Part shown: positions 12,044 to 38,716 of the stretch, piece after piece
Numbering within the stretch: the first letter of the stretch is position 1
How the letters are laid out: every line of letters begins with the position of its first letter
From: Candidatus Heimdallarchaeum aukensis
GTDB lineage: Archaea; Asgardarchaeota; Heimdallarchaeia; Heimdallarchaeales; Heimdallarchaeaceae
Assembly: GCA_021513695.1 (NCBI GenBank)
Contig: CP084166.1
Coordinates: forward strand, 416,001-480,000
Direction: 5' to 3'
DNA: 64,000 nucleotides
Translations under genes and position numbers: made by a program
The notes under the pieces: generated by a model
The model's database searches: none
What the model was told of the DNA's origin: nothing
What the model saw: only the letters and a program-made list of their open reading frames with translations

Positions 12044-12529
12044 TTGTTTTCCATGTCTTACCAAACTTTTGCTGAGAAGTGCGAACCTGCTGTTCCAAAG
12101 TATGTACATTACATTATTGCAGGTCTTGCATGGTTAGGAGTAGGAATAATGTTATCTAATTTTGCTATTCAATGGTTAATCGTTGCAGAGGTACCTCTTG
12201 TTTGGATTTATGGTTTAATTGGAACAATTGCTGGTTTTATCATCTACTACTTTGGTTTTTCGCATATTGCCAAAAAGAATGTTAAAAGAATAGTTGAAAA
12301 AAGGCATAAATTCTGTGTTTTTGCTTTTATTTCTTGGAAATCATACTTGACAATACTTGTTATGGTTGCAATGGGGATAGGATTGAGATTGTCTCCTATA
12401 CCTAAACACTATCTAGCCGTCTTATACATTGGTTTAGGAATAGGTTTAGGTCTGTCTAGTTTTGTTTATTTTGGAAAAACTATTCTTCATTTCAGAAATA
12501 ACCAACCAGATCAAATAACAAACAATTAG
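12044..12529 (+). CDS. Hypothetical integral membrane protein
   Basis: 161 aa with four hydrophobic helices. The 3' end overlaps the convergent methyltransferase by 4 nt. Confidence 0.35.
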   Translation: MFSMSYQTFAEKCEPAVPKYVHYIIAGLAWLGVGIMLSNFAIQWLIVAEVPLVWIYGLIGTIAGFIIYYFGFSHIAKKNVKRIVEKRHKFCVFAFISWKSYLTILVMVAMGIGLRLSPIPKHYLAVLYIGLGIGLGLSSFVYFGKTILHFRNNQPDQITNN

Positions 12530-23063: not shown

Positions 23064-25118
23064 TTGAACAGAGCAAAAAAAATAGTACCTTTAGCTATAA
23101 TATTTGTTCAAATAATTCTTTTTACTAGCTTACAGTATAGTTCCGTCAATGCAGATGAGATTCAGTATAACGTAATTGGAATAAACATCAATTCCGATAG
23201 TGATTTTATTGATTTTGCAAGGACAGGAGCAGGAACTAAAGAAGATCCCTACATAATTTCAGGGTATCACTTTGAGTACTATGAAATTGGGATATTTATT
23301 TCACAAACAAGTAAATATGTCATAATAACTAACTGTTCTTTTTCTAACATCAAATATGAAGCAATAAGATTGTGGTCTGTCAAATCTGGAACAGTAAGAA
23401 TAGAAAACAATACGATTGTTAATGCAAAAGTGGGAATATTCCTATATGAAGCTCCAGATTGTACAATAATAAGTAATAAAATAATGAACTGTTCTGCTTT
23501 TGCAATTAAAGATGATTTTTCTAGAATAGGATCAAAAATTATGAACAATACACTTTATAACAACGAAGAAGGAATAACCATAAGTGAAACTAATTACACT
23601 CAAATACTGAATAATTACATAATTTACAGTAGAAATGTTGGCATTTATTTAATGGATACCACAAATGGAACAGAAATACATCATAACTTCTTCTTAAATG
23701 CTAACAAACCTGCTTTTACAACAGCTTGTAGTTATGGATATTATAATAATTGGACATCAAATTATTGGAGTGATTGGGATGGTTCAAGTCCATATAAAAT
23801 AGAGAGTAAATATGAACAAACTTTTGACACAAATCCTTTAAGTTTCGATGACTCTGATGGAGACAAAATAATCGATATTTTAGAACTTGTTATGGATATG
23901 AATCCAGAATCAACCGACAACGACTCTGATGAAATTTCAGATTATGATGAATTACTTATTTATGCAACAAACCCTAATACAATAGATACAGATGAAGATG
24001 GAATAACAGATTATGATGAAATATTTGTATATTTAACAAATCCGAATACACAAGATACAGATAAAGATGGAATAACAGATTATGATGAAGTATTTGTATA
24101 TCATACAGATCCGAATAAAAAAGACTCAGATGGTGATACCTTTTCAGATTATGAAGAAATATTACAGAAAACCAATCCTAGGAAAAGTTATAGTAATCCA
24201 ATTACAAAAAAATATTTGACAATCTTTCTTCCAATTTTTTCAGGTTTATTTGGTGTTGCATTTCTTTCAACTAGATATTACTCTAACTCAAAGAAAAACA
24301 AAATTAAGGTAATCTTTGACACATGGAATGAATTTTTCAATGAATGGGAAAAAATAATTGAACAGATAAATAAATCAGGAAATTCAGAAATAGAAGAAAT
24401 AATCTTTGAGGTAAATCAGTTAAAAGAAAAAAAAGTAGATGAGCTTGAATTTGTCAAAAAAATAGTAGCTCAATCAAAGAAACTACTTATAGAACATATG
24501 AAATTCAACGTTGAATTAAGTTTACAAAAATACAAAAAGCAAATAGAAATTTTTGTTAACCTACAGAGTAATTTGATTGATAAAGCTTTAATTACCCTTA
24601 ATCAAATAACAGAAAATACAATTCTTAATGCTGTAAAAGATTATTTGTGGATGAGATTCGTTTATTTGTATAGTACTACTAGCAAATCAGAAGCAATTAC
24701 CACTATTGAAGATGTGAGTGGAGATGCACTTTTTAACAAGTTCATTAAATTTTATAGATCTTTAGATTATGAGGAAAGACTGAAAAAAGAAATATCCAAC
24801 TTAGCAGAAGAAGTAAAATTTCAGATAAATCAAGCAAAAAAATATGAAATTGAGCTTATAGAAAGTTCAATAAACTCTATTATTGATTCTCTATTTGATA
24901 AATTTAATAAACTTGAGATCGATATAAATATTCTTCAAGAAAAAATCAAGGATATAAACATCGCTCAGATTAAACTAGATAATCCTTCCGAAACTTTTGT
25001 TAGAATCGAAAATATAGTAAAAGAAGAAGTGAACATACAAATGAAAGATAAAGAAGAGTCTATTCAGTCTAATCTTTTCTCTAATCAAGAAAAAGGGTTA
25101 AAGAATCCGCGTGAATAG
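23064..25118 (+). CDS. Receptor-like type I membrane protein: signal peptide, right-handed parallel beta-helix, TSP3-like Ca-binding repeats, a single TM helix, and a cytoplasmic coiled-coil domain. TTG start.
   Basis: 684 aa. Beta-helix rungs (NNTIVNAKVGIFLY, CTIISNKIMNCSAF, NNTLYNNEEGITIS). Four DTDxDGITDYDE repeats. A TM helix (IFLPIFSGLFGVAFLS), then a 300-aa K/E-rich heptad region. Confidence 0.7.
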   Translation: MNRAKKIVPLAIIFVQIILFTSLQYSSVNADEIQYNVIGININSDSDFIDFARTGAGTKEDPYIISGYHFEYYEIGIFISQTSKYVIITNCSFSNIKYEAIRLWSVKSGTVRIENNTIVNAKVGIFLYEAPDCTIISNKIMNCSAFAIKDDFSRIGSKIMNNTLYNNEEGITISETNYTQILNNYIIYSRNVGIYLMDTTNGTEIHHNFFLNANKPAFTTACSYGYYNNWTSNYWSDWDGSSPYKIESKYEQTFDTNPLSFDDSDGDKIIDILELVMDMNPESTDNDSDEISDYDELLIYATNPNTIDTDEDGITDYDEIFVYLTNPNTQDTDKDGITDYDEVFVYHTDPNKKDSDGDTFSDYEEILQKTNPRKSYSNPITKKYLTIFLPIFSGLFGVAFLSTRYYSNSKKNKIKVIFDTWNEFFNEWEKIIEQINKSGNSEIEEIIFEVNQLKEKKVDELEFVKKIVAQSKKLLIEHMKFNVELSLQKYKKQIEIFVNLQSNLIDKALITLNQITENTILNAVKDYLWMRFVYLYSTTSKSEAITTIEDVSGDALFNKFIKFYRSLDYEERLKKEISNLAEEVKFQINQAKKYEIELIESSINSIIDSLFDKFNKLEIDINILQEKIKDINIAQIKLDNPSETFVRIENIVKEEVNIQMKDKEESIQSNLFSNQEKGLKNPRE

Positions 25119-25302: not shown

Positions 25303-27288
25303 TTGAAAATAAAAAAGTCAAAATCTAATCTGTTAGTTTTGTTTTTAATATTGTTCTTTACTAGTTCTACCTATTTTCATATAAAAGCAGATGATAATAC
25401 AAAATCAGGTTTTGCAATTCAAATCTCTTCTAACGATGAATTTTCTTTATTTTCAAAAGCAGGTAACGGAACTAAAGAAAATCCCTATGTTATCTCAGGA
25501 TATATCATTGAACACTTCGAAGCAGGTATTTTTATATCTCAAACAACCAAATTTTTCGTTATTACTAATTGTACTTTTCTTAATCTAAAATATGAAGCCA
25601 TACGAATAATGACAGTAGATGTTGGTAATGTTAGAATAGAAAATAATACGATTATTAATACAAAGTTTGGAATTTATATATATCAAGCTCCAAAAAGTAT
25701 TATTGTAAATAACAAAATCGTTAATTGCACTGTATCAGGAATAAGAGACGAATTTTCAGGAATAGGTTCTAAAATTGAAAACAACACTCTTTACAACAAT
25801 GAAGAAGCTATTACAATTTATTCAACAAATTATACTCAAATATTAAATAATTATATAATCAAAAGTCGGAAAGCTGGCATATTTCTATTGTGGAAACCAA
25901 ATGGAACAGAAATACATTATAACTTTATTCTAAACTCAGTAAAACCTTATATTGCAACTGCTCACAACGAAGGATTCAATAATAATTGGACATCAAATTA
26001 TTGGAATGACTGGAATGGAACAGGAGATTATCAAATAAGTAGCATTTATGAAACAACATTTGATAAAAATCCTTTGAGTTTTAATGACACTGATGGAGAT
26101 AAAATAATTGATATTTTGGAACTTGTAATGAATACAGATCCTTATGTGGTAGATAGCGACAATGACGGAATTGATGACTATAATGAATTGCTTAATTATG
26201 CAACAAACCCTAATGCCCAAGACAGTGATGGAGATGGAATATCTGATTATGACGAAATAATTGTATATACAACAAATCCCAATGCACAAGACACTGATGG
26301 AGATGGAATAACAGATTATGATGAAGTATTTGTTTATGGAACTGATGCAAAGAAACGAGATACTGATGGCGATACTTTTTCTGATTATGAAGAAATATTA
26401 ATGAAAACTAACCCTAAAAAAAGTTACAGTAATCCTATTATTAGAAGATATCTAACCATCTTAATTCCTACTTTTTCAGGAGTACTTGTTATTGCAGCTT
26501 TTTCAACTAGATACTATACCAACTCAAGGAGAAACAAAATTAAGGTGATTTTTGAAACATGGAATGAATTTTTCACTGAGTGGGAGAAAATAATTGAGCA
26601 GATAAACAATACAAAAAATTCAGAAGTTGAAGAAATAATATTTGAGGTAAAGGAACTTAAAAATAAGAAAATTGACGAACTTGAGCTTGTAAAGAAAATA
26701 ATCAGTCAAGCTAAAAAATTACTTATCAATCATATGAAGTTCAATGTTGAATTAAGCTTACAAAGATATAAAAAGCAAGCTGAAATTGTAATTAATCTAC
26801 AGAATAACTTAATTAGCCAAGCATTAACTGCTCTTAATCAAATAACAAAGAATACAATACTAAACGCTGTAAAAGATTACTTGTGGATGAGATTTGTTTA
26901 TCTATATAGCACAACAGAAAAATCTGAAGCCATAACTACTATTGAAGATATAAGTGGAGACACTCTTTTTAACAAGTTTGTCAAATTTTACAAATCATTA
27001 GATTATGAAGAGAGATTGAAAGAAGAAGTTGCTCATTTGGCAGAAGAAATCAAATATCAAATAAGAAAAGCCAAAGATTATGAAATTGATCTTTTAGAGA
27101 GTTCAATAAATTCAATTATAGACTCTTTACTTGATAAGTTTAACAAGCTTGAAGTTGATATTAATTTTCTTGAAGAAAAAATAAAAGACATTAGTGTTGA
27201 ACAGTCCAAGATCGATAATCCAAAAGATGCCTTCTTAAAAATAGAAAAAATAGTTAAAGAAGAAGTGAAAGAACAAAAAAGCAATTAA
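25303..27288 (+). CDS. Tandem paralog of 23064..25118 with the same architecture: beta-helix, TSP3-like repeats, TM helix, cytoplasmic coiled coil. TTG start.
   Basis: 661 aa, collinear with and similar to the upstream gene along its whole length (eyeball estimate roughly 60-65% identity). Confidence 0.7.
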   Translation: MKIKKSKSNLLVLFLILFFTSSTYFHIKADDNTKSGFAIQISSNDEFSLFSKAGNGTKENPYVISGYIIEHFEAGIFISQTTKFFVITNCTFLNLKYEAIRIMTVDVGNVRIENNTIINTKFGIYIYQAPKSIIVNNKIVNCTVSGIRDEFSGIGSKIENNTLYNNEEAITIYSTNYTQILNNYIIKSRKAGIFLLWKPNGTEIHYNFILNSVKPYIATAHNEGFNNNWTSNYWNDWNGTGDYQISSIYETTFDKNPLSFNDTDGDKIIDILELVMNTDPYVVDSDNDGIDDYNELLNYATNPNAQDSDGDGISDYDEIIVYTTNPNAQDTDGDGITDYDEVFVYGTDAKKRDTDGDTFSDYEEILMKTNPKKSYSNPIIRRYLTILIPTFSGVLVIAAFSTRYYTNSRRNKIKVIFETWNEFFTEWEKIIEQINNTKNSEVEEIIFEVKELKNKKIDELELVKKIISQAKKLLINHMKFNVELSLQRYKKQAEIVINLQNNLISQALTALNQITKNTILNAVKDYLWMRFVYLYSTTEKSEAITTIEDISGDTLFNKFVKFYKSLDYEERLKEEVAHLAEEIKYQIRKAKDYEIDLLESSINSIIDSLLDKFNKLEVDINFLEEKIKDISVEQSKIDNPKDAFLKIEKIVKEEVKEQKSN

Positions 27289-27295
27289 AAAGTTT

Positions 27296-28411
27296 CTAAT
27301 GTATCCTTAGATTAGGTGGAATAAGGTTTAGAACTCCACAGGCTGGACATTCTATTACTCCATTTTCGTTCATGTCTTTTAGATCTAAGAGTTCTCCACA
27401 ATTCCCTGCACAATACATGGGAATTAATTCTGGTCCTTCCTTTACTCCTTCAATTGCACTATTAATCTTTGGAATAACTTCTTTGTAGAGCCTTTCGTGT
27501 ATTTGATCCACTTCATAACCGTAGACCCATATAGCTATATTTCCACTTTTTTCTTTTCCTGTGATTATAAGTTCAACTATAGAAATATCTTTTTTTCCGA
27601 TTTGGGAGACAAACATCAGGTTTCCAATGAAATTTTCACTTGTATCCATTACTATCTGTTCGTTCACTGTTTTATAAGAATCAAATAAGGTTTTTAAAAC
27701 TTTAAAAGCGACTTTTGGCTTTGCATGGAATTCTATTGATCTTCCTAATGAATCGAGCTTGTTGTTCTTTAATTCCATTAAAGCTTCATAATAACCATTT
27801 TCTATTCTTTCTTTAAGTATTAAAGCTCGTTCCTCTCTTTTTTTGTAAGCTTCATAGATTAGTTCTGTAAATTCAGCTTGTTTTTTCTTAACTATTGTAA
27901 ATTTCGTTCCTTCATGTATCTTTACAGGGGGAAAAGGCAAGCTACCTATTATTTGAGACTGAACAATATATGGTTCTCTTAAAGTTGAAGGAACAATAAA
28001 GCTTAACGAAGTACCGTAATCGATTATTTTTCCAATGTTTCCCTCTCTTACTATTGAACTCCAATCTCCTCCAGGAATTGTAACTGTATCTGGAACAGCC
28101 AAAAACACAACATCTGCTCTCGGGGGAGCAGAAGATATTAAAGCTGTTACTTCTTCTCCATCACCTATTTCTCCTGCAATTCTTTTGTCCAAGTATATTA
28201 AAGGATTTTTTCCTTTTTTTACTATCTCATTGATTTCAGCAAAAACTGAACTAGTCCTTCCAATTGTAGAAGAAAAGAGAAGAGCATATTTTTCATCATC
28301 TGCAAGTTCTAATTCAGTATCTTCTGGTAAAACTATACCTATACCGTTTCTAAAAACTAGTTTAACTTTACATGTAACCGTTTTCACATTCCTCTCTAAG
28401 AAAATCCTCAC
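27296..28411 (-). CDS. Hypothetical protein with a C-terminal C4 zinc ribbon
   Basis: 371 aa. The C-terminus is CAGNCGELL...ECPACGVLNL (C-x3-C...C-x2-C). No other motif recognised. Confidence 0.4.
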   Translation of the reverse strand: MRIFLERNVKTVTCKVKLVFRNGIGIVLPEDTELELADDEKYALLFSSTIGRTSSVFAEINEIVKKGKNPLIYLDKRIAGEIGDGEEVTALISSAPPRADVVFLAVPDTVTIPGGDWSSIVREGNIGKIIDYGTSLSFIVPSTLREPYIVQSQIIGSLPFPPVKIHEGTKFTIVKKKQAEFTELIYEAYKKREERALILKERIENGYYEALMELKNNKLDSLGRSIEFHAKPKVAFKVLKTLFDSYKTVNEQIVMDTSENFIGNLMFVSQIGKKDISIVELIITGKEKSGNIAIWVYGYEVDQIHERLYKEVIPKINSAIEGVKEGPELIPMYCAGNCGELLDLKDMNENGVIECPACGVLNLIPPNLRIH

Positions 28412-28752: not shown

Positions 28753-29529
28753 TTAATTTTGTTCAAATTCTATTCTAATCTCATATGCAGTTTTTGAAGT
28801 CCAAATAGTTGGTGTGATGAAAAATTCTGCAACTATTTCTTCTTTATCTGGATCAAAATATACATTTCTTTCAGACGGGACAATATAACCAATTCCATTT
28901 GTAAAATAAGCTCTTACAGTCATTGAACCTTGATTAAGTCCATTTAGTTTTACTGTTGCTTCAGTTAATTTTTTACCCAATTTTTCTGTTGTCAAACTAT
29001 AAAGTCTAGCTTCTTCAGAACTAACTCTAGAGCAAGTAATTTCTAACTCATCCAGAGCATAACCAGTTTTTTTGATAAAAATAACTAATTTAAAGACTTC
29101 ATTAATACAAAAATTATATGGTACTTTTATCATTAAATTTCTACTATAGGTCTTTTCTTCTTTATCAACAGAGAGTGAAAGAGATTCTGTTTCTTCTGCT
29201 TCTTCGATCATTTCCAATTCAGGAGATTCAATTAATTTCTCATCAAGTGTCATAGGAGCAAAAGGAATAGGAGAGCGTACAGATTTTGGAAGTTCAGTTT
29301 CTTCTTCTGATGACATTGTTTTTACTGAAGAAGGAATAGAACGTCTTCTTTTTTTCTTACTTTTCTTATCTTTTCTAGATAATCTCATTTTATCCGTTAT
29401 TAGATCCTTTACATTTGAAGTGAAAATTTTCTCTTTTTGAAAATCTATCTTCTTAGAACTGAAAACAATAACAAATGTTACTAAGCTACTAACTAGAAAA
29501 ATTATTCCTAAAATAAAAGATGTTGACAT
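28753..29529 (-). CDS. Hypothetical N-terminally membrane-anchored protein with a Lys/Arg-rich linker
   Basis: 258 aa. N-terminal TM helix (FILGIIFLVSSLVTFVIVF), then a KKSKKKRRRS stretch. Confidence 0.35.
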   Translation of the reverse strand: MSTSFILGIIFLVSSLVTFVIVFSSKKIDFQKEKIFTSNVKDLITDKMRLSRKDKKSKKKRRRSIPSSVKTMSSEEETELPKSVRSPIPFAPMTLDEKLIESPELEMIEEAEETESLSLSVDKEEKTYSRNLMIKVPYNFCINEVFKLVIFIKKTGYALDELEITCSRVSSEEARLYSLTTEKLGKKLTEATVKLNGLNQGSMTVRAYFTNGIGYIVPSERNVYFDPDKEEIVAEFFITPTIWTSKTAYEIRIEFEQN

Positions 29530-29702: not shown

Positions 29703-30755
29703 ATGATGAGTAAACAAAAAAACAAAAAAACAAATAACACAGAAGTATACAAGAAAATTTTTCAGACGGCTCAAGATTCAATTTTTTTGCTTAATAAGAA
29801 TAATGTCTTTATAGATTGCAATCCTTATACTTGTGATATGTTTAATTGTGAGAAAGAAGATATTATTGGAACAACCCCAGTTGAATGGTCTCCTGAACTA
29901 CAGTTTGATGAAGTTCCTTCAGAAAAAAAGGCTAAACAATATATAAACAAAGCCTTTTCTGGAACACCTCAACGCTTTGAGTGGATTCACAAAAAAAAGA
30001 CAGGAGAATTATTTTATTGCGAAGTTTCTCTTAATAAGGTTGTAATAGATGGAGAAGATTTTTTACAAGCAATAGTACGTGAGATAACAGAAAAAAAATT
30101 TATTGAAGAAGTTGATTTAATATTCTCAAAAATAATTGACCATGATACCAGAAATATAGCCTTTGCAACTACTTCATACATCAATCTAATTCGAAATAAC
30201 TTTGAAGTAAATGAAAAACTAGATAATTATCTTAAAAGAATAGAAGATAATTTAGAAGAATTAATGAGTATTATAAATAAATTTTCAATTTTACATGAAG
30301 TCATGTATGAAACAAAAAAGCAAGTAATAAACCTTTATGAGACTGTTTGCAAAAGCATTCAACTTTTTGAAGAGAAATTAGGAGAAAAAAAAGTTGTAGT
30401 TGAAAACAAGATTAACAAAAATCACAAAGTAATTGCGGGGAATTTATTGATTGAAGTAATTAACAATTTAATAAGTAATTCCCTTCGGCACGCAAATGCT
30501 AATAAAGTTTTAATAAAAAGCAAAGAAACTCCAGAAAAAATAATTCTTGTTTTTGCAGATGATGGAAAAGGTTTTGACGAAAATTTATTACCTAATTTAT
30601 TTAAAGAAGGAATAAAAGGTCGTGATTCAAAAGGATCTGGTCTCGGTTTATATATTTCTAAAAAAATAATTAATTTATATGAAGGACATATTTCAGCAAG
30701 AAATGCAAGTAAAGGCGGAGCTGAATTTATTATTGAATTAGAAAAAGCAGATTGA
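29703..30755 (+). CDS. Cytoplasmic PAS-domain sensor histidine kinase
   Basis: 350 aa. N-terminal PAS fold, an H-box (HDTRNIAF) and HATPase_c N/G boxes (NNLISNSLRHA, DDGKGFD, GSGLGLYISKKI). Confidence 0.8.
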   Translation: MMSKQKNKKTNNTEVYKKIFQTAQDSIFLLNKNNVFIDCNPYTCDMFNCEKEDIIGTTPVEWSPELQFDEVPSEKKAKQYINKAFSGTPQRFEWIHKKKTGELFYCEVSLNKVVIDGEDFLQAIVREITEKKFIEEVDLIFSKIIDHDTRNIAFATTSYINLIRNNFEVNEKLDNYLKRIEDNLEELMSIINKFSILHEVMYETKKQVINLYETVCKSIQLFEEKLGEKKVVVENKINKNHKVIAGNLLIEVINNLISNSLRHANANKVLIKSKETPEKIILVFADDGKGFDENLLPNLFKEGIKGRDSKGSGLGLYISKKIINLYEGHISARNASKGGAEFIIELEKAD

Positions 30756-30829: not shown

Positions 30830-31693
30830 GTGAAAGATATGAATGATAAAAAAAGATACTTAAGGTTAAAGAATTTAAAAGAATTTGGAGTAGATATTAC
30901 TTGGGAAAATCTTTTTTCAAAAACCGTTTTATTTGCAGGAGTAGGTGGAGTAGGAAGTATTGCTGCTGAAATGTTTGCTCGATGTGGAATAGGAAAAATG
31001 ATTTTGATAGACTTAGATATTGTAGAAGAAGTAAATTTAAACAGACTATTTTATACTCAGGAAAATATAGGAAAGCCAAAAGTAGAAGTAGCAAAAGAAA
31101 TTTTAACAAAAATTAATAGAGACGTGGAAATTGAAACATATCATTCTGATATCTGTGCAATCGATTTTGAAGAAAAATTTGAACAATTGATAAAAGAATC
31201 AGATTTAGTTATTTCTAGTTTAGACAATATACCTGCAAGATTATATATTAATGAAAAATGCGTTCAACTAAGAAAAGAGTATATCGATTCAGGAGCAAGC
31301 AGATCAGGTTTAGGAGGATATGTTCATTTAGTTATTCCATTTAAAACTGCTTGCTATCAATGTACAGGTTCAATAGATTTAGGAGAAAAAAAGCATGGAG
31401 AACCATGTACTGCTTCTTTACCTTCTACAATAGCTATTATAGCTTCACTCACAGTGGAAATTGCACTTAAACATTTGTTAAATTTTGGAGTGATTCCTGA
31501 TTATATCGGTTTTAACGCTTTGACCGACCAGTATATAATACAAAAGATGAATAGAGATCCTTCATGTTATATATGTGGAGAAAGAAAAACGAATCTAAAA
31601 GAGCAGAGGAAATCTTTGCAAGAAATTGATGAATTAACGGAAGGAAAAACTGTAGATGAGTTAATTCAAAATTTGGATTCTCATGAGAAGTAG
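30830..31693 (+). CDS. E1-like ubiquitin/SAMP-activating enzyme (ThiF/MoeB/UBA family)
   Basis: 287 aa. Nucleotide-binding Gly-rich loop AGVGGVGS, a Rossmann fold, and two CxxC pairs (CYQCTG...C, CYICGE). First gene of the Ub-like operon. Confidence 0.8.
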   Translation: MKDMNDKKRYLRLKNLKEFGVDITWENLFSKTVLFAGVGGVGSIAAEMFARCGIGKMILIDLDIVEEVNLNRLFYTQENIGKPKVEVAKEILTKINRDVEIETYHSDICAIDFEEKFEQLIKESDLVISSLDNIPARLYINEKCVQLRKEYIDSGASRSGLGGYVHLVIPFKTACYQCTGSIDLGEKKHGEPCTASLPSTIAIIASLTVEIALKHLLNFGVIPDYIGFNALTDQYIIQKMNRDPSCYICGERKTNLKEQRKSLQEIDELTEGKTVDELIQNLDSHEK

Positions 31694-31706
31694 AACTAAT
31701 TAAAAA

Positions 31707-32765
31707 GTGGTAAGAATGGTTAAAGTTCAAATTTCTAAACATATCTTAAAAGCAATAGAGAAACACGCTATTGAATTTAAAGGAAAAGAAATCTATGGTT
31801 GGTTGTTAGGATACGATAATGGTTCAAATTTGAAAGTTATTGCAAGTGTTCCTTGTAAAATGTACAAAATTCAAAATGAAGTAAGAGCAGAACCATCAAC
31901 AGAAGAAGCTTTTGAAATTGTAAAGAACATTCCTAAAGGAATAGGAATCATAGGTATTTATCATAGTCATCCAAATAAGGTTTATCACAGCGTAACTGAT
32001 GATTTGACAGTAAAACAATATGCTAATGTATATCCTCATTTCTTAAGTATTGTAACAAACGGAAAGGAAACAAAATCATTTCAATTAATAGATAACGATG
32101 TTAAACCAATTGATGTAGGTGAGTTAAAAGAAGAAACTTTAAAGACTCTTACTTTTAAGATACCTTTGAAATATTATTATCCTGAAAATGAGGAATTAAC
32201 GCTAGCTTTCATTTCATCAGAAATAAGAGAATTCTTGGAAAAAGAGTCACAAAACCTAAAACTAATAGCTAATGACAGAGAAATTAAAGATGATGAGAAG
32301 ATAGATTCTTTGACAAAAACAACCATTGAAGTAAAGTTAGAAAGTGCTGAAATTAATTTCAATGAAAAGAAAAAGTATATTTTCTTTAATTTTCATTTTG
32401 ATATGGTTTCTCCACCCAAGAAAACTGTTTCAGATTTAAAACCTCTCTTATTCAATGGCATTAAAGATTCTATGTATTATTACATTAAAAATATAAAATT
32501 AAACAATTCTTTTGAACTACCTTACGAATTTAAATTTGAAATTTCTAATATTCCTTGGAGGTTTAATGTCAAAAAAGACACATGGGATCTAATTCAGTTT
32601 CTTGACATTTTTGCATTTCGAATAAAGTACATGTCATTTAAAAATGAGAAGAAGAGGAACAAAATTCATTCAGAGATAATTAAAATTAAAGAAATTTTAG
32701 AAAAAGACAAATCAGCTTTTGGAAAAATTGATTCGTTATTGGAGGGACTAACGAAAAAGATTTAA
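31707..32765 (+). CDS. JAB1/MPN/JAMM metalloprotease (Rpn11/CSN5-like deubiquitinase) with a long C-terminal extension
   Basis: 352 aa. Conserved Glu in EIYGWLLG, and a JAMM motif HSHPNKVYHSVTD (H-x-H-x6-S-x2-D, one residue shorter than canonical). It starts 13 nt after the E1-like stop. Confidence 0.75.
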   Translation: MVRMVKVQISKHILKAIEKHAIEFKGKEIYGWLLGYDNGSNLKVIASVPCKMYKIQNEVRAEPSTEEAFEIVKNIPKGIGIIGIYHSHPNKVYHSVTDDLTVKQYANVYPHFLSIVTNGKETKSFQLIDNDVKPIDVGELKEETLKTLTFKIPLKYYYPENEELTLAFISSEIREFLEKESQNLKLIANDREIKDDEKIDSLTKTTIEVKLESAEINFNEKKKYIFFNFHFDMVSPPKKTVSDLKPLLFNGIKDSMYYYIKNIKLNNSFELPYEFKFEISNIPWRFNVKKDTWDLIQFLDIFAFRIKYMSFKNEKKRNKIHSEIIKIKEILEKDKSAFGKIDSLLEGLTKKI

Positions 32766-32804
32766 AAAGAAAAAAGCTAGAAGAAGAACAATGGGGACAA
32801 AAAA

Positions 32805-33068
32805 ATGGAGTCTTTAAAGAGATTATATTTTACAACAATAGTAGGAACAGAACATAAACAAATACCATTTGAAACACCAGGAAGTATAGTTTTCCACGAA
32901 TTAATTGTAGAAGTTTCAAAAAAGTTTGGAATAGCTACTGAACAAATTGCGATAAGCAGTGAAATGGGAGAAACTCTAACAGTTTCAGATTTTCAATCCA
33001 CTGTGGACGAAATAATAAGAAAGTATGGAACAGCTTTTCAAGTTATTAATCGAGGAGTAGTAGGATAA
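32805..33068 (+). CDS. Ubiquitin-like beta-grasp protein (Ub/SAMP-like modifier)
   Basis: 87 aa. Secondary-structure-like pattern collinear with ubiquitin (IAISSEMGETLTVSDF ~ QRLIFAGKQLEDGRTLSDY; TAFQVINRGVVG ~ STLHLVLRLRGG). The C-terminus is G-V-V-G, not a canonical GG. Confidence 0.6.
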   Translation: MESLKRLYFTTIVGTEHKQIPFETPGSIVFHELIVEVSKKFGIATEQIAISSEMGETLTVSDFQSTVDEIIRKYGTAFQVINRGVVG

Positions 33069-33079
33069 AGATTTTAGAG

Positions 33080-33661
33080 ATGGGGGTTCCAAAGATTAGC
33101 GACAGCGATACTTCAACAGTAAAAGGAAGATGGAGAGAAACACCTGCAGAAAGAGAACTAGTTAAGTTTCCAGAAGCTCTGATAAATATAACTCCAAAGC
33201 ATCCTAAATGGACAGAAAGAGTGAAAATAGAAATTTTAAATCTAGCAAAATATGTTCAGTTTTTACAAAGAAAAGGCGGGCATAGCTGGTTCTTTCTTAC
33301 ACCTAGTAAAGATCCTAAGTACAACTTTATGAAATGGGAAGGATATTTGCAAGTGGCTACAAGACCAGAAATTAGGTTTAAAATAGTAATTCTTTTACCT
33401 GGAAACTATCCAAAATCTTGCCCTAGGGCTTTCATTGAAGAAAGAGTAGTAGAATTTGCAGGAAAGATTTATACCAAAAATGTCTGGGAAGAGCCAAATG
33501 GAGAAAAATATTTGATGATATGTCATGACCACATGAGTGAAATTGACGATATTTGGGATCCAAGGTTAACAATTGCACACTTTTTCATAAGAGAAGTATT
33601 CTATTGGTGGGCAGCTCAACAGAACCTAATAATTGAACATTACGACAAAGGAAAGAAATAG
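33080..33661 (+). CDS. E2-like ubiquitin-conjugating enzyme (UBC fold)
   Basis: 193 aa. FKIVILLPGNYPKSCPRAFIEE resembles the E2 Y-P-F-K-P-P-K-V-x-F segment. EPNGEKYLMICHDHM resembles the HPN...G.IC active-site region with the catalytic Cys. It starts 11 nt after the Ub-like stop. Confidence 0.6.
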   Translation: MGVPKISDSDTSTVKGRWRETPAERELVKFPEALINITPKHPKWTERVKIEILNLAKYVQFLQRKGGHSWFFLTPSKDPKYNFMKWEGYLQVATRPEIRFKIVILLPGNYPKSCPRAFIEERVVEFAGKIYTKNVWEEPNGEKYLMICHDHMSEIDDIWDPRLTIAHFFIREVFYWWAAQQNLIIEHYDKGKK

Positions 33662-33836
33662 ATTATTTTTAAGCTATTTTTACTTTTTAAATTTAGAAGT
33701 TTATTTTTATTAAATGGTGTTTACTTGAAAAGCAGAAGCAGAAATAAGAAAGAAGTTATGAGACTAAATAAATCAATGTAAAAAAACTGTTAAATTTAAA
33801 CAAAAAATTTAACTATTTTATCGTTTATATAATTTT

Positions 33837-34874
33837 TTGATGAGTAACAATTTAATATTGAATTTTTTAAATTTTCCACCAAATGTTGATTCTTTTACAG
33901 ATTATGAAAGTAAAATTCATAACGAAATTGAAAATCAATTCAATGATACACGTTCATTACTTCTTGTAATCATGAAGAGTTTGGATGTGGAAGACAAAAA
34001 ACGTTTTTTCAAAATTAAGAAATTTCTTGACAAATTAATTAGTGAGTTCAATTCCTTAAAAACTAGAATTTTTTCATTTGAGACAATTGAAGGAAAATTA
34101 TCTTTCAATCATGAAGTTGTTTTAATTTTAGATTTCTTAATTTTTGAACGTTTATTAGACTTCAATACTACTTTAAGAAATATAGAATCGATAGTTCTAC
34201 ATACTTTGGATAAAGATTACATTCAAGCTCAATCTTTTCAACTTCACAAATCTCTACAAAAACTAGAAAATTTAATTAATTTCCGTAAAGTAGCACATCA
34301 ACTTACTCCATCTGATCAATTGTTTCTGCAATTCTCAGAAGATTTCAGTGCTCAACTCTCTTATCTTGAATCAGTAGGCGTAATTCACCAGTTTGATGAA
34401 CTAAGTAAACCTTCTTTATTGGGAAAGAAAGCATATTATGACAAACTTTCTCAATTGTTTATCTCAACTTGCAATTCTCTACAAAAACAAAATAGATTAA
34501 ACATACCTTTTCTTGAATTTGTAGATGTTTTTCAAAAGAGATATCCAAATGTTGAGTTTGCTGTAGAAGATTTGGACAAAATTGCTTCAAGACTTTCAAA
34601 GACTGGGATGATTTCTGTAGTTACTAATACAGAGCAATCAAAGAAAATTATTATTGGCGAAGACATTGCTTTACAGCAAGAAATACTCAAATTAGCCAAA
34701 GGAAAAGGATACATTACACAAGAAGAATTGATTAGTTCTTTAGGTAAAAGTATAACGGAGATACAATTAACTATCAAGAAACTTGAAGATGCAGGACTAG
34801 CTATCGAAGACGATGACTATGCTTCAGGAAAGAGGATCTATTTTCCAGGTTTAGAAACAGAAATAAAAAGTTAG
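33837..34874 (+). CDS. Hypothetical protein with a C-terminal winged-helix domain. Candidate ESCRT-II (EAP30/Vps22-like) component, by Asgard synteny only.
   Basis: 345 aa. The C-terminal ITQEELISSLGKSITEIQLTIKKLEDAGLAIEDD looks like a winged helix. Its position directly after the Ub operon mirrors Asgard Ub-ESCRT clusters. No motif-level proof. Confidence 0.3.
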   Translation: MMSNNLILNFLNFPPNVDSFTDYESKIHNEIENQFNDTRSLLLVIMKSLDVEDKKRFFKIKKFLDKLISEFNSLKTRIFSFETIEGKLSFNHEVVLILDFLIFERLLDFNTTLRNIESIVLHTLDKDYIQAQSFQLHKSLQKLENLINFRKVAHQLTPSDQLFLQFSEDFSAQLSYLESVGVIHQFDELSKPSLLGKKAYYDKLSQLFISTCNSLQKQNRLNIPFLEFVDVFQKRYPNVEFAVEDLDKIASRLSKTGMISVVTNTEQSKKIIIGEDIALQQEILKLAKGKGYITQEELISSLGKSITEIQLTIKKLEDAGLAIEDDDYASGKRIYFPGLETEIKS

Positions 34875-34883
34875 GGTGAAAAA

Positions 34884-35531
34884 ATGTCATATATTGTAAA
34901 ATTGGGATTAGATGAAAAACAAGAAAATAATGTAACTAAAAGTGAACTTTCAGATGAACTTGTTGCATGGGTTTTTCCCTACGCTTTAGAAAAATGGGAA
35001 AAAATTAATTTAAAGAAAAGAAGGCAAATTTTGGTTAAACTCAATGAAAAAGCTCTCGTTTATAACAAAGAAAACTTCATTCAAGAGCTTTCAAGTGGCT
35101 TATACAAAGTTAATAGAAAAGAAGGTCTTGAAGATCACAAAATTGTTTTCTTAGAAAAAAACCTTATTACTCTTAAATGGGGCATCACTCAAATGCAAGG
35201 AGTTTTAACAAGTGACAATATAAAAGTTGGAGCTTCTGGAACAGTTTCTCTAACTTTATCAGGTGCAGAAGTATTTGTTTTAAACGTTCTGAAAAATAAA
35301 ACAAGTTTTTCAAAGAAAGAACTCCGCCCCATAATAAATAATATCGTCAAAAGTGCATTAAGAGAAGTTTTTCCACAGTATTCTATTGAAGAATTACAAA
35401 AATTAAGTAAAGACGAATTACTTATGTTCTTTGAACCAATAATTGTAGAAGAATTGCAAAAAATAGGTTTTAGTAGCCAAGATATATCATTGGGTGCATT
35501 GGGAATTCCTCCGGAGTATAGGATTTTCTAA
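34884..35531 (+). CDS. Hypothetical protein. Candidate Vps25-like winged-helix protein, by synteny only.
   Basis: 215 aa. It starts 9 nt after the previous gene. The size fits Vps25. Confidence 0.25.
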   Translation: MSYIVKLGLDEKQENNVTKSELSDELVAWVFPYALEKWEKINLKKRRQILVKLNEKALVYNKENFIQELSSGLYKVNRKEGLEDHKIVFLEKNLITLKWGITQMQGVLTSDNIKVGASGTVSLTLSGAEVFVLNVLKNKTSFSKKELRPIINNIVKSALREVFPQYSIEELQKLSKDELLMFFEPIIVEELQKIGFSSQDISLGALGIPPEYRIF

Positions 35532-35647: not shown

Positions 35648-36514
35648 TTGAAAAAATATTCTTGTTTCATGTCATTAGAATACAGTTGTATACTTCCACA
35701 TGGTTTTAATCTTATACCAGATCTTAATCCAGAACAAGATGAAAAATCAGCTAAACTCGCTTTAGAAATTTCTTCTATTGCTGAACAAATAGTTAACAAA
35801 GACCCTGAAGTAATAATTATTGCGTCTCCTCATAATCTGCGAATAAGCGAAAATATAGGCATTGTTACTACAGAATGGTTGAAGGGCTCTTATATAGAAA
35901 AAGATACAGAAAAAAGTGCAGAAATGGAATGGAAGTGTGACAGAAAACATGCTTCTAAACTCTACATTAGGGCAAAAAATGAAGGTTTACCTGTAGTTGC
36001 TGTTAATTTTGGAACAAGTGAGGGCCCATTATCGAGTATACCTTTAGATTGGGGAACATTTATTCCTCTTTACTTCATCAAAAAAGCTTACGAGAAAAGT
36101 AAGAAAACAATTCCTCAGGTAGTTCTAATCACCCCTAGCAGAGACATAGATTGGAAGCATTTAGTGAAATTAGGAGAGTTAATATATCTATTGAGCATTG
36201 AGGAAAATAAGAAAACAGTTTTCATAGCAAGTGCTGATCAAGCTCATGCACATGATGCAAATGGTCCTTACGGATTTGATCCTGCAGCAAAAAGTTTTGA
36301 CGACTTGATTTGCAAAATGATTACTTCAAACTCGTTAAATGATTTATTAGGAATAGATCAAGGATTAATTGAACACTCAAAACCAGATAGTCTGTGGCAG
36401 ATACTTATTCTTGCAGGAATAGCTGTTAAAGCAAACATGGTCAACAAGTCTTGTGTCTATGAGTGTCCAACTTACTATGGAATGATTGCTGCCTCATTTG
36501 AAAGAAAAATATAA
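35648..36514 (+). CDS. LigB/DODA-family (class III extradiol dioxygenase-like) protein
   Basis: 288 aa. Conserved His-containing segments ILPHGFNL, IIIASPHN and ADQAHAHDANGPYGFD resemble LigB-family metal ligands. Confidence 0.4.
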   Translation: MKKYSCFMSLEYSCILPHGFNLIPDLNPEQDEKSAKLALEISSIAEQIVNKDPEVIIIASPHNLRISENIGIVTTEWLKGSYIEKDTEKSAEMEWKCDRKHASKLYIRAKNEGLPVVAVNFGTSEGPLSSIPLDWGTFIPLYFIKKAYEKSKKTIPQVVLITPSRDIDWKHLVKLGELIYLLSIEENKKTVFIASADQAHAHDANGPYGFDPAAKSFDDLICKMITSNSLNDLLGIDQGLIEHSKPDSLWQILILAGIAVKANMVNKSCVYECPTYYGMIAASFERKI

Positions 36515-36545: not shown

Positions 36546-37571
36546 ATGCACAACAAAGAAAAAAGAAAACAATTATTCCTTTTTATTTTTGCCTTAATAA
36601 TCAGCATAACACTCGCAATAGTGCTTACTCTAGTAGAAAAACAAGTTTCAGTTCCTAAAATGATTATTTTTGGTTTTTCCTCTTTTTTAAATATCATAAC
36701 AATTTGTATCTTTACTTTTCCTTACATTAACAAAATAGTTATAGAGTATCTAAAAGGAAGAAAAATATACTATCTTTTCTTATTAGTAGTAATTATCAAT
36801 CCATTGTTAAATTGGATATTTATTGATTCACTAAATGGATTTATAGTTGCTTTTCTATCTTATTTAGCTTGGATAGCTTTACCTGTTATAGCTTTTATGC
36901 AAGCATATGTAATTGATAAAATCAAGTTTAAATCATTACTACTTGTGGCAGGAATATTAATTTTAGCATATGGTTTTGATTCAAGACTTATGTATTCTGT
37001 TCTTTCCGGTTTTGATGAAGGAAAATACAGTTTTAGCTCATTATGGGTAAGCGCAATAATTCTTACAATATACTCTATTCAGTTAGAAAAAGCAGAAATA
37101 AGATTAAGGTGGACACTAAATTTAAAGAAGCTAATATTATCTCTCGGTTCTTTAGTCGTATTGTTTGCTGTTATAGTTCCTTTAGGCTTATATACTGAAT
37201 TTCTAGTCTGGTCTCCTGATTGGCCAGGATTTGCATTATTTATCCTTGCATTTATAGGTATATGGTTTACAATTGCTCTTCCAGAAGAACTAATAGCTCG
37301 CTCAATAATCCAATATCAATTATCAGAGAAAACTGTTCCTAAAAGTAGTAAATATTACAAATATCACAAATGGATTATATTGGTAGTAGCGTCCTTTATC
37401 TTCGGATTAAGTCACCACAACAACACAAGTGCAGAATTCGCTTGGATTTACATAGGCTTTGCTACTTTTGCAGGAATTTTATATGGTATATGTTGGAGAT
37501 ATGGTAATTTAGCTACAGCAATGTTAACACATACTCTAGTAGACTGGATTTGGCAACTGTTATTTAGATAG
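36546..37571 (+). CDS. CPBP-family (CAAX/Abi-type) intramembrane metalloprotease
   Basis: 341 aa, polytopic. Motif 1 EELIARSIIQ (EExxxR), motif 2 FGLSHHNN (FxxxH), motif 3 HTLVDW (HxxxD). Confidence 0.7.
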   Translation: MHNKEKRKQLFLFIFALIISITLAIVLTLVEKQVSVPKMIIFGFSSFLNIITICIFTFPYINKIVIEYLKGRKIYYLFLLVVIINPLLNWIFIDSLNGFIVAFLSYLAWIALPVIAFMQAYVIDKIKFKSLLLVAGILILAYGFDSRLMYSVLSGFDEGKYSFSSLWVSAIILTIYSIQLEKAEIRLRWTLNLKKLILSLGSLVVLFAVIVPLGLYTEFLVWSPDWPGFALFILAFIGIWFTIALPEELIARSIIQYQLSEKTVPKSSKYYKYHKWIILVVASFIFGLSHHNNTSAEFAWIYIGFATFAGILYGICWRYGNLATAMLTHTLVDWIWQLLFR

Positions 37572-37573
37572 AT

Positions 37574-38716
37574 TTACATCCTTTCTACTTCTTCTAAATA
37601 ATCAAAAAATTGAACTTTTTCTGATGTCTCAGAATCTTGCATTCTTTTTATTAATCTCTTTTTTGCAACCTCAATTGCTTTTTTTGAGTTATCTATACCT
37701 ATCCATCTTCTATCTAGTTCTTGAGCAGCAAGTAGAGTTGTGCCAGAACCGCAAAAACAATCAAGAACAATGCTATCTTTGTTAGAAGAAATAGCAATTA
37801 GAAGTTTTAACAATTCAATGTTTTTTTCTGTAGGGTAGCTGGGATATTGAGGATCTTTAAACTCTAGAATGTCTTGATATTTCATTCCTTTTTTCTCATC
37901 TGCATAAATTTTCTTCCTAGGAACACCTGTTTTTGACCATTCAATTAGTCCTTCTTTATCTAGTTTTTCTAGTTCTTCAGGAGAACTTCGCCAGTGTCGT
38001 CCTTTAGGCGGTAAAATTCCTTTCCACTCTTTTCCTGTCAAACCATTTTTTGTTTCTCCAGGAGCATGAAGAGGAATGGTGGTATATCTTCTTCCATCGC
38101 TATCAATTTTTTTGAAAAGACGATTAATGTCTTCTTCAGTAAAAGGTTTTTTTTGTTCATTCCAAATATAATCTTTAGTCTTTGAATAGAATAATATCAT
38201 GTCTTTAATATTACCAAAAGCTTTTCGATGAAAATTTTTGGGATTACACTTTATTCTTGACAAATCATTGATAAAATTCTCTTCTCCAAATATTTCGTCC
38301 ATTATGATTTTAACATAGTGACCTATTTTGTAGTCAGTATGGACATAGATAGAAGCTTGTTTTGACATTAATTCTCTTATTAAAACCAATCTTTCTCTAA
38401 GAAATTCAAGAAATTCATACCCCGTTACAATATCAGAAAAAGCTACATTCGAAGACAAACTGTTGCTAATTGTGTTAGCCCTATCTTCTGAAATTCTAAA
38501 AACCTTATTTGTAGAAAAAGGAGGATCTATATAGACCAAATCTATTTTTTCTTTATATTTTTCAGATTCTAGTAAATGTTTCATAACTCTCAAATTATCT
38601 CCAAAAATGAGTTTAGAACTAGTATTATTACTTCCGTTTATTGACTTTAATTCAATTTGAGGAATTGACTTGAATATCTCCTCTTTTGTCTTCTTGTTAG
38701 GATATTCTAAATACAT
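37574..38716 (-). CDS. Beta-class DNA methyltransferase (N6-adenine or N4-cytosine), apparently orphan
   Basis: 380 aa. Motif IV (DLVYIDPPFS) precedes motif I (VLDCFCGSGTT) plus the IGIDNSKKAIEVAKKRL helix. No nuclease-like neighbour. Confidence 0.85.
   Translation of the reverse strand: MYLEYPNKKTKEEIFKSIPQIELKSINGSNNTSSKLIFGDNLRVMKHLLESEKYKEKIDLVYIDPPFSTNKVFRISEDRANTISNSLSSNVAFSDIVTGYEFLEFLRERLVLIRELMSKQASIYVHTDYKIGHYVKIIMDEIFGEENFINDLSRIKCNPKNFHRKAFGNIKDMILFYSKTKDYIWNEQKKPFTEEDINRLFKKIDSDGRRYTTIPLHAPGETKNGLTGKEWKGILPPKGRHWRSSPEELEKLDKEGLIEWSKTGVPRKKIYADEKKGMKYQDILEFKDPQYPSYPTEKNIELLKLLIAISSNKDSIVLDCFCGSGTTLLAAQELDRRWIGIDNSKKAIEVAKKRLIKRMQDSETSEKVQFFDYLEEVERM

Follow-up and report, generated by a model that had tools for sequence, protein, structure and literature searches.

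What type of protein-conjugation system is specified by a compact gene cluster of Candidatus Heimdallarchaeum aukensis, in which an activating enzyme (E1), a JAMM metalloprotease, a ubiquitin-like modifier (Ubl) and a conjugating enzyme (E2) are encoded one after the other? The cluster is located within a 64,000-nucleotide stretch of the genome of this archaeon (assembly GCA_021513695.1, contig CP084166.1, positions 416,001 to 480,000 of the forward strand; G+C content of approximately 30%), which is referred to here as the window and to which all coordinates apply unless a locus of another genome is named. A first-pass annotation, made from the letters of the DNA and without database searches, had assigned these genes to an Asgard/Caldiarchaeum-type ubiquitylation operon accompanied by components of ESCRT-II. 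We propose that the cluster is likely to represent a UFM1-type, and not a ubiquitin-type, conjugation cassette which is conserved across the Asgard archaea, because its E1, its E2 and its modifier, when tested separately, each matched UBA5, UFC1 and UFM1, respectively, best.

The cluster comprises six open reading frames (ORFs), all on the forward strand, which are separated by intergenic gaps of, in order, 13, 39, 11, 175 and 9 nt, thus bearing out the earlier description of four co-directional genes with gaps of 13, 39 and 11 nt between them. These ORFs, the long gap that divides them and a partner gene located upstream on the opposite strand, beyond the interval covered by the first-pass annotation, are as follows.

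30830..31693, + strand: UBA5-like E1, 287 aa (Pfam ThiF; PDB match to UBA5)
31707..32765, + strand: JAMM/MPN+ metalloprotease, 352 aa (Pfam Prok-JAB/JAB; PDB 6fjv)
32805..33068, + strand: Ufm1-like modifier, 87 aa (AlphaFold2 model; Foldseek match to UFM1; -VG end)
33080..33661, + strand: UFC1-like E2, 193 aa (Pfam UFC1; sequence and structure matches in the PDB)
33662..33836, + strand: AT-rich gap of 175 nt between genes, containing a number of T5 runs and a TATA-like sequence
33837..34874, + strand: EAP30/Vps22-like tandem winged-helix protein, 345 aa (Pfam EAP30; SNF8 profile match)
34884..35531, + strand: SPFH/Band 7 protein, 215 aa (Pfam Band_7 and Band_7_1)
27296..28411, - strand: zinc-ribbon partner ("ZR" family), 371 aa (iterative hidden Markov model [HMM] search; LysW-type zinc ribbon)

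The 175-nt gap probably represents the boundary of two linked transcription units, the first composed of the E1, JAMM, Ubl and E2 genes and the second of the winged-helix (WH) and SPFH genes, as judged from the T runs and AT-rich character of the gap and from the observation that the WH-SPFH pair moves as a block in other loci. Transmembrane helices were predicted in none of the seven proteins (the four core proteins and the WH, SPFH and zinc-ribbon proteins).

The E1 harbors a ThiF adenylation domain (Pfam E=4.6e-51), a GVGGVG motif at residues 37 to 42 and two CxxC pairs, at residues 175 to 178 and 246 to 249, which are predicted to form a zinc site; a ThiF/E1-like enzyme with two such pairs had been correctly recognized in the first-pass annotation. 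Its best match in the PDB is human UBA5 (6h77), with an E value of 2.4e-51, a score of 178 bits and 39.3% identity over 257 residues, as compared to 91 bits for MoeB, 79 for ThiF and 78 for UBA1. The E1 segment GEPCTASLPST aligns with UBA5 "REGVCAASLPTT", the segment bearing the catalytic Cys of UBA5, which in the human enzyme is Cys250 (PMC12355090). Cys193 is, on the basis of this alignment, predicted to be the catalytic residue of the archaeal E1 and to reside inside the adenylation domain, as is the case in UBA5. The C-terminal tail of the E1, of approximately 38 aa, terminates in the acidic/hydrophobic sequence TVDELIQNL, a motif that is kept in most of 27 family members. This tail was also considered as a UBA5-type UFC1-binding sequence, a resemblance that could not be supported by a tail profile search.

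The E2 matches the Pfam family UFC1 (PF08694) by a narrow margin (26.1 bits, with a gathering score of 25; E=7.7e-6) and falls below the Pfam cut-offs of both UQ_con and UEV. When the single sequence was searched against the PDB, 26 of 26 matches were to UFC1, and the 26 best matches of the E2 profile were, likewise, all UFC1 (E values of 1.8e-7 to 2e-6). The UBC fold anticipated for this protein was recovered by structure prediction, the AlphaFold model adopting a UBC-type fold with a predicted local distance difference test (pLDDT) score of 87.9. The 25 best Foldseek matches of this model in the PDB were all UFC1 (TM scores on the target of 0.64 to 0.75; E values of 2e-6 to 6e-5), while canonical E2s (Ubc9 and UbcH5) aligned to it with template modelling (TM) scores of approximately 0.45 or lower and E values of at least 5e-4. 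A joint alignment with eukaryotic UFC1 contained 16 invariant columns, including I147-C148, which stands opposite the Cys of "GGKICL". Cys148, which lies within the invariant motif MICH(D/E)H of the family, is predicted to be the catalytic residue. In UFC1, a TAK motif stands in place of the HPN motif. HPN is absent from the H. aukensis E2, whose K129 is the counterpart of the TAK Lys in the alignment; in the archaeal proteins the motif takes the form (A/T/C)-G-K, the Thr and the Ala not being kept; the (G/T)IAH motif of the E2 family also aligns with eukaryotic UFC1.

When 1.84 billion representative proteins were searched exhaustively by HMMER for relatives of the E2 family, only 51 matches were returned, and those which carried a source name were all of Asgard origin. 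Eight weak matches (E values of 1e-7 to 6e-4) were recognizable as eukaryotic UFC1s by sequences such as "TAKMYRGGKICL" and "FGIAHAL", and neither a canonical E2 nor a named bacterial protein was present among those of the 51 matches that were examined. Precomputed Pfam UFC1 labels for Asgard E2 proteins are already present in public databases.

The modifier (100% identity to Ca. Heimdallarchaeum aukensis K9W45_01750) ends in N-R-G-V-V-G87 without a tail and is, therefore, encoded in its mature form. As had been noted from the sequence, it is a beta-grasp protein with a GVVG end, the AlphaFold2 model showing this fold with a pLDDT of 89.4; its proposed correspondence to ubiquitin fared less well, since UFM1 ranks above ubiquitin structurally. 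The 14 best Foldseek matches in the PDB were all UFM1 (TM scores of 0.72 to 0.92; root mean square deviation of 1.3 to 2.6 Å), with ubiquitin behind them at a root mean square deviation of at least 2.7 Å, though still significant. Because sequence methods gave results below threshold, the UFM1 assignment of the modifier rests on its predicted structure and on its -VG end, and at the sequence level this protein is Ufm1-like and no demonstrated member of the family.

The GVVG end, formerly regarded as an oddity, is an invariant property of the family and resembles the conjugation end of UFM1: G-[VI]-V-G is invariant in an alignment of 15 members, and the modifiers of the loci bear -VG without exception. 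Mature UFM1 itself ends in a single exposed Gly, Gly83, following the trimming of a short extension (PMC12985071). Among the free modifiers encoded by the fetched loci, 17 of 22 end exactly at -VG, and the remaining five carry tails of one to three residues (+L in H. endolithica, +GN in Lokiarchaeum ossiferum, +GF, +ART and +WYE). Seven loci encode the modifier as an in-frame fusion with the E2, the sequence -(V/I)VG being kept at the junction. Such fusions, which derive from several Loki/Hermod-type genomes and were also observed in proteins P0011 and P0017, are located as follows.

L017, 6283-7098: Ubl-E2 fusion
L019, 6740-7552: Ubl-E2 fusion
L023, 6734-7552: Ubl-E2 fusion
L024, 6713-7525: Ubl-E2 fusion
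L026, 3090-3908: Ubl-E2 fusion
L027, 5979-6791: Ubl-E2 fusion
L033, 977-1753: Ubl-E2 fusion

Tailed and E2-fused modifiers would require an endoprotease in order to expose the -VG end, and tails or fusions that follow a kept -VG are the usual pattern of a conjugatable Ubl whose end is exposed by a protease. The Ubl-E2 fusion may possibly function as a cis-acting modifier-E2 unit.

Rpn11 and AMSH have a JAMM motif with a seven-residue spacer. The first-pass annotation had described the protease of the cluster as a JAMM deubiquitinase whose spacer is of six residues, and the domain assignment is sustained by matches to Pfam Prok-JAB (E=4.9e-8) and JAB (E=8.6e-8) and by a complete motif, E28...H86-S-H88-PNKVYH-S95-VT-D98, within a catalytic domain that spans residues 1 to 125. 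The spacer indeed contains six residues, leaving a one-residue gap in alignment with Caldiarchaeum Rpn11, but it is not the anomaly that it was taken for: across the family, it is of six residues in Heimdall-type and of eight in Loki-type proteins ("HSHPFSSEVFHSHTD"), and the five motif residues (one Glu, two His, one Ser and one Asp) are kept in 29 of 29 homologues. It is, therefore, regarded as a trait of lineage, with no sign of decay. Among solved structures, the protein is closest to the Rpn11-like enzyme of Caldiarchaeum (6fjv; E=1.4e-5), which is known to process a ubiquitin precursor and to act in deconjugation (CsRpn11; PMC6043591). As judged by its motif and domain matches, the protease of the operon is a JAMM enzyme rather than a cysteine protease of the UfSP kind. 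No significant Pfam match was obtained with the last 227 residues of the H. aukensis protein. The Lokiarchaeum JAMM protein (L014, 4269-5702, - strand) displayed a weak Pfam match to ODR4-like (E=0.026), and the N-terminal domain of the eukaryotic UFSP2 is reported to be non-catalytic and to adopt an MPN fold (PMC12985071). An evolutionary link between the operon JAMM and the MPN domains of the eukaryotic deUFMylation machinery is at most very faintly hinted at.

Is this combination of genes peculiar to H. aukensis? A profile search with the E2 family across GTDB species genomes yielded 35 loci, the lineages of which include Heimdallarchaeota, Promethearchaeota (including the cultured L. ossiferum), Hermodarchaeota, Odinarchaeota, Sigynarchaeota and Hodarchaeota. 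The earlier Asgard attribution was correct; all loci with a named lineage are Asgard, with the exception of two partial matches in a single metagenome-assembled genome labeled "Patescibacteria group bacterium". These partial UFC1-like matches (L035 and L039, on JANBVM010000027.1 and JANBVM010000030.1) are located on contigs that were probably mis-binned, given that all other matches are Asgard. The E1, JAMM, Ubl and E2 genes occur together in 26 of the 35 loci, and these complete loci span Heimdall-, Loki/Prometheo-, Hermod-, Odin- and Sigynarchaeota; the remaining nine are accounted for by five short contigs or contig ends and by four partial E2 matches. Recurrence in 26 of 35 independent Asgard loci places this gene set far above chance. 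In many loci the Ubl and E2 genes overlap by 4 nt.

The partner genes are also conserved. The zinc-ribbon family (of approximately 360 aa) was identified in 24 of the 35 loci by iterative HMM search, being located directly upstream of the E1 gene in Loki-type loci, and the WH family was identified in 23 of the 35 by iterative search. A gene of the SPFH family is present in 21 loci and adjoins the WH gene in 20 of these, and in other genomes the WH-SPFH pair is positioned upstream of the core, downstream of it or on the opposite strand.

Some variation of the core was apparent in individual loci. In some Promethearchaeota, genes are inserted between those of the E1 and the JAMM protease (L010, 2821-4287 and 5570-6616; L013, 3053-4585); one of the L010 inserts encodes a 488-aa leucine-rich-repeat protein, and a similar C-terminal motif, "...EIYAQYFSS...AFDQQANIDEID", is shared by the L010 inserts. 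In L. ossiferum (L014), the E1 and JAMM genes are oriented divergently to the Ubl and E2 genes. Divergent UFC1-like domains were, furthermore, observed in larger proteins, namely at residues 583 to 764 of P0040 (Lokiarchaeota, 866 aa, annotated as "SIR2 family protein") and at a similar internal position in the 400- to 540-aa proteins P0067 to P0070, P0080 and P0084, of which P0068 (Hodarchaeales) also possesses an N-terminal Ubl-like region without -VG. P0060 (Heimdallarchaeota, 164 aa) carries an Asp where the catalytic Cys would stand and is possibly an inactive, UEV-like form.

The family identity of the E1, the E2 and the modifier, the retention of their catalytic residues, the conserved operon and the fusions are shown by these comparisons. 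As regards mechanism, we infer the thioester and isopeptide chemistry, the specificity of the protease and the roles of the three accessory proteins as follows. The UBA5-like E1 would adenylate the C-terminal Gly87 of the modifier and would then take the modifier onto Cys193, from where it would pass to Cys148 of the UFC1-like E2; the functional linkage of this E1-to-E2 transfer is suggested by the genomic linkage of the genes and by the Ubl-E2 fusions. The E2 would subsequently transfer the modifier onto lysines of target proteins. The JAMM protease is presumed to assume the role of UfSP, cutting after the -VG of tailed or E2-fused modifiers and removing the modifier from its targets, and because the modifier of H. 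aukensis is already encoded in its mature form, the activity of the protease in this organism would be mainly deconjugating. The zinc-ribbon, Vps22/EAP30-like WH and SPFH proteins may constitute a targeting or reader module, possibly including a scaffold-type E3.

The proposed cascade shares with the eukaryotic UFM1 system a small, single-domain ThiF E1 with an in-domain catalytic Cys, a four-Cys zinc site and a C-terminal tail; an E2 with the UFC1 fold, an aligned Cys, no HPN and a TAK-type Lys; and a modifier of UFM1-type beta-grasp fold which ends in a single terminal Gly preceded by Val and which, in some Asgard archaea, is made as a short-tailed precursor. It differs from the eukaryotic system in that the genes form a prokaryotic operon, in that its protease is a JAMM zinc metalloprotease rather than a papain-like UfSP, and in that UFL1, DDRGK1 and CDK5RAP3 are not encoded adjacent to it. 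Moreover, the E1 tail is of approximately 38 aa as opposed to approximately 70 in UBA5, 12 additional residues precede the Cys of the E2, modifier and E2 are joined in a single protein in several lineages, and the associated partners are zinc-ribbon, EAP30-like WH and SPFH proteins.

The first of these partners to be considered here, the 345-aa protein (100% identical to K9W45_01760), consists of an N-terminal helical region and a C-terminal tandem winged helix. The latter had been likened to EAP30/Vps22 on sequence inspection, a likeness that holds at the domain level: Pfam EAP30 is matched with an E value of 2.8e-8, above the gathering score, and the profile of the WH family matches the tandem winged helices of human SNF8/Vps22 (3cuq_A; E=1.8e-7) and of yeast Vps22 (E=6.9e-4). 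EAP30 is matched by 8 of 18 WH members and is the only specific Pfam family that recurs among them. The C-terminal tandem winged helix is shared with ESCRT-II Vps22/SNF8, from which the protein is distinguished by a long N-terminal extension, by its SPFH neighbor and by the absence of ESCRT-III and Vps4 from the window. A characterized Heimdall Vps22 of 27.9 kDa is clustered with Vps25, ESCRT-III and Vps4, and Asgard genomes are stated to carry a single Vps22/36-like gene (PMC9192718). From its domain architecture and gene neighborhood, the 345-aa protein, which is larger than that Vps22, is tentatively read as a separate paralogue with an EAP30 domain that is linked to the UFM1-type genes. 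The Lokiarchaeal versions are of approximately 460 aa and contain an extra N-terminal winged helix. Identification of the WH protein as UFL1 or DDRGK1 was also considered and was not supported, there being no corresponding PDB match at E<=1 and E3_UFM1_ligase not being among the 25 commonest family matches. In two divergent Heimdall-related loci, the WH protein carries a Cys-rich C-terminus with several C-x2-C pairs and the pattern CGNCGK...CDDC...CKLCG (L031, 4073-5152, - strand; L032, 10924-11985, + strand); a zinc finger and a RING-like element are both conceivable for this module, whose candidacy as a RING domain found no Pfam support.

The 215-aa product of the sixth gene was expected to be a winged-helix, Vps25-like protein and proved to be otherwise. 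It matches Band_7 (PF01145) with 45.9 bits (cut-off of 23.6; E=8.5e-12) and Band_7_1 (PF13421) with 28 bits (cut-off of 24; E=2.1e-6), by which it is assigned as a soluble SPFH/Band 7 protein and not as Vps25; its sequence gave nothing significant in the PDB.

The zinc-ribbon protein is composed of approximately 320 N-terminal residues followed by a C-terminal LysW-type zinc ribbon of the form C-x2-C...C-x2-C. Pfam Zn_ribbon_LysW is matched by 10 of 16 family members and NCBIfam lysW by 8 of 16, and in searches of the PDB, Pfam and NCBIfam the zinc ribbon alone was recognized, no family being retrieved for the N-terminal part. A relationship of this protein to the Cdc48/p97 N-domain was tried and rejected (hhalign probability of 0.2%, with an approximate p97 query sequence). 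In L. ossiferum CP104013 (L014, 2829-4223, - strand), a 464-aa fusion protein joins the approximately 320 N-terminal residues of the zinc-ribbon family to an EAP30-like WH, which replaces the zinc ribbon, and the corresponding gene adjoins that of the JAMM protease. The three conserved partners may reveal the function of a UFM1-type system in a cell that has no endoplasmic reticulum.

How firmly does the UFM1-type assignment stand? A number of observations weigh against it. At the level of sequence, the modifier scored 13.7 bits against Pfam Ufm1 (PF03671), below the cut-off of 27 (E=0.061), and a 15-member modifier profile retrieved no UFM1 from the PDB, its best match being a redesigned ubiquitin (E=0.067). 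The TM scores of the E2 to UFC1 are moderate (0.57 to 0.75), and the archaeal insertion upstream of Cys148 amounts to approximately 12 residues. A profile of the E1 tail (16 members) retrieved no UBA5 chain from the PDB, this profile being too short for power, and no homologues of UfSP, UFL1, DDRGK1 or CDK5RAP3 were found in the window. Finally, a derivation of UBA5 from a bacterial homologue has been argued (PMC10183829).

The alternative that best withstands the data, although we consider it improbable, is that which had been suggested at the outset, namely, a partial ubiquitin-type operon of the Asgard/Caldiarchaeum kind in combination with ESCRT-II, with a divergent ubiquitin as the modifier and with Vps22 and Vps25 as the products of the downstream genes. 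The parts list is identical, since the Caldiarchaeum/Asgard ubiquitin operon is a comparably compact archaeal assembly of E1, E2, beta-grasp modifier and Rpn11-like JAMM; the JAMM protease is closest to the Caldiarchaeum Rpn11-like enzyme, ubiquitin is a significant, if lower-ranked, structural match of the modifier, and the 345-aa protein matches EAP30 and SNF8/Vps22. However, UBA5, UFC1 and UFM1 are clearly better matches than their ubiquitin-pathway counterparts, and the Caldiarchaeum operon is characterized by a GG end, a canonical UBC E2 and a RING E3, where the present cluster has a VG end, a UFC1-type E2 that lacks HPN and no RING that could be found. The E1 of the Caldiarchaeum operon possesses a separate Cys-bearing domain (PMC11354881), whereas the Cys of the H. 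aukensis E1 aligns with the in-domain Cys of UBA5. The sixth gene specifies an SPFH protein and not Vps25, and neither ESCRT-III nor Vps4 is encoded in the 64-kb window: among its ORFs of at least 110 aa, no match to the RING, Vps4, ESCRT-III, Vps25 or Vps28 families was obtained, in line with the absence of a RING E3, Vps4 and ESCRT-III already remarked upon in the first-pass annotation. This alternative is, as judged from the fold and profile rankings, largely refuted, and the ubiquitylation-operon label gives way to a UFM1-type assignment of E1, E2 and modifier.

A second possibility, which we hold to be very improbable, is that the beta-grasp protein is a sulfur carrier of the SAMP/Urm1/MoaD-ThiS type, which the E1 would thiocarboxylate for tRNA thiolation or cofactor synthesis, conjugation being secondary or absent. 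The E1 does match models of ThiF, MoeB and the SAMP-activating UbaA, though below their cut-offs, the JAMM protease weakly matches a desampylase model (E=8.1e-5), and archaeal SAMP systems are known to pair an E1 with a JAMM protein. Against this, all NCBIfam sulfur-pathway models scored far below their cut-offs, the UBA5 score of the E1 is twice that of MoeB, no rhodanese domain is present, and the modifier ends in VG where sulfur carriers end in GG. Furthermore, SAMP and Urm1 operate without an E2, whereas the present system without exception includes an E2 of its own, which bears an invariant Cys and is sometimes fused to the modifier.

The least credible alternative is an anti-virus defense operon that would tag viral proteins in the manner of bacterial Bil or CBASS Cap2/Cap3, for, while the four parts (Ubl, E2, JAB and E1) equal those of BilABCD, the E1 and JAB proteins match the CBASS "E1-E2" and "JAB" models of PADLOC-DB (2023 release), the modifier distantly matches a bacterial Bil Ubl in structure (rank 23) and two DNA methylases are encoded in the window, the E1 match is to a generic adenylation domain (at most 65 bits, versus 178 for UBA5) and that of the JAB protein is weak, no meaningful PADLOC match was obtained for the Ubl, E2, zinc-ribbon, WH or SPFH proteins, no member of the family was found in 2.9 million viral contigs, and its presence in all sampled Asgard phyla, with stable neighbors and graded identity, fits vertical inheritance over patchy defense islands.

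UFMylation is treated as a eukaryote-specific modification and is tied to the endoplasmic reticulum and to ribosome quality control. How, then, does a UFM1-type operon in Asgard archaea relate to what has been reported? Homologues of Ufm1 were recently described in nine clades of Asgard archaea, and in none of the remaining prokaryotes (PMC12962969, 2026), the main text of that study containing no mention of UBA5, UFC1, a protease or genomic context; these homologues probably belong to the same small-protein family as the modifier described here. In another study, UFM1, UFC1, UFSP2 and C53 are stated to be exclusive to eukaryotes, and UFL1 and DDRGK1 to originate in Asgard archaea and, hence, before UFM1 (PMC10183829). 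Besides the latter, no paper naming both UFC1 and Asgard archaea, and no published description of an Asgard UFM1-type operon, was found in the literature searched, from which many subscription papers were inaccessible to searching. Generic "E2-like candidates" and a "ubiquitin system" have been listed for Asgard genomes earlier (for example, PMC9192718), and such lists may have counted the present genes without recognizing their UFM1 type.

What is new here is the placement of the modifier in a conserved operon together with its likely E1, E2 and protease, which provides the archaeal UFL1 and DDRGK1 homologues with a plausible pathway in which to act. To this are added the prokaryotic operon arrangement itself, the use of a JAMM protease for UfSP, the natural modifier-E2 fusions and the EAP30-like, SPFH and zinc-ribbon partners. 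The small size and predicted solubility of the four core proteins should make them suited to reconstitution in vitro, and the operon is also present in the cultured L. ossiferum.

It is probable that the core genes of the UFM1 pathway were already grouped in an operon before eukaryotes emerged: as the modifier is encoded together with a UBA5-like E1 and a UFC1-like E2 in an operon that is conserved among Asgard phyla, the simplest reading is that the cascade predates the eukaryotes. A more far-reaching proposal, which we put forward tentatively and regard as rather doubtful, is that eukaryotes inherited the whole UFMylation core (E1, E2, modifier and protease) from Asgard archaea, in which it had originated as a single operon, the partners representing the ancestral targeting machinery. 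The eukaryotic UFL1-DDRGK1 ligase is built of winged helices. Under this proposal, the EAP30-like WH and zinc-ribbon proteins would, by analogy, act as a RING-less, scaffold-type E3 or reader, and this scaffold would direct tagging to SPFH-organized assemblies, while the catalytic JAMM protease of the operon could be the forerunner of the non-catalytic MPN domains in UFSP2 and ODR4. An Asgard origin of this kind would, if true, overturn both the published eukaryotic invention of UFC1 and the bacterial source of UBA5.

The remainder of the window was also inspected. No RNA genes were found in it by a search for such genes. Between the zinc-ribbon gene and the E1 gene are located genes for a 258-aa protein with an N-terminal transmembrane helix (28753-29529, - strand) and for a PAS-HATPase histidine kinase (29703-30755, + strand), both of which were left out of the system because their position is kept only in H. 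endolithica (L005). Directly 3' of the SPFH gene lies a LigB-family dioxygenase-like gene (35648-36514, + strand), an arrangement also observed in Heimdallarchaeaceae loci L005, L007 and L034, and this is followed by a gene for an Rce1-like CAAX/CPBP intramembrane protease (36546-37571, + strand), which recurs only in L005. As neither is present in Loki-type loci, both are probably unrelated neighbors.

At a greater distance from the cluster, the two N6/N4 DNA methyltransferase genes of the window (12526-13422 and 37574-38716, both - strand) have no obvious restriction endonuclease among their Pfam-annotated neighbors. A 1929-aa protein (2656-8445, - strand) contains two UvrA interaction domains, two UvrA DNA-binding domains and several ABC/P-loop modules; it is approximately twice the normal length of UvrA and resembles a tandem-duplicated UvrA-like fusion. 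Five large TSP3-repeat proteins, presumably located at the cell surface, are encoded at 15395-17251 (- strand), 23064-25118, 25303-27288, 45536-48505 (+ strand) and 57796-62244 (- strand), three of which are paralogues with a NosD-type right-handed beta-helix and two of which carry beta-propeller or FG-GAP repeats.

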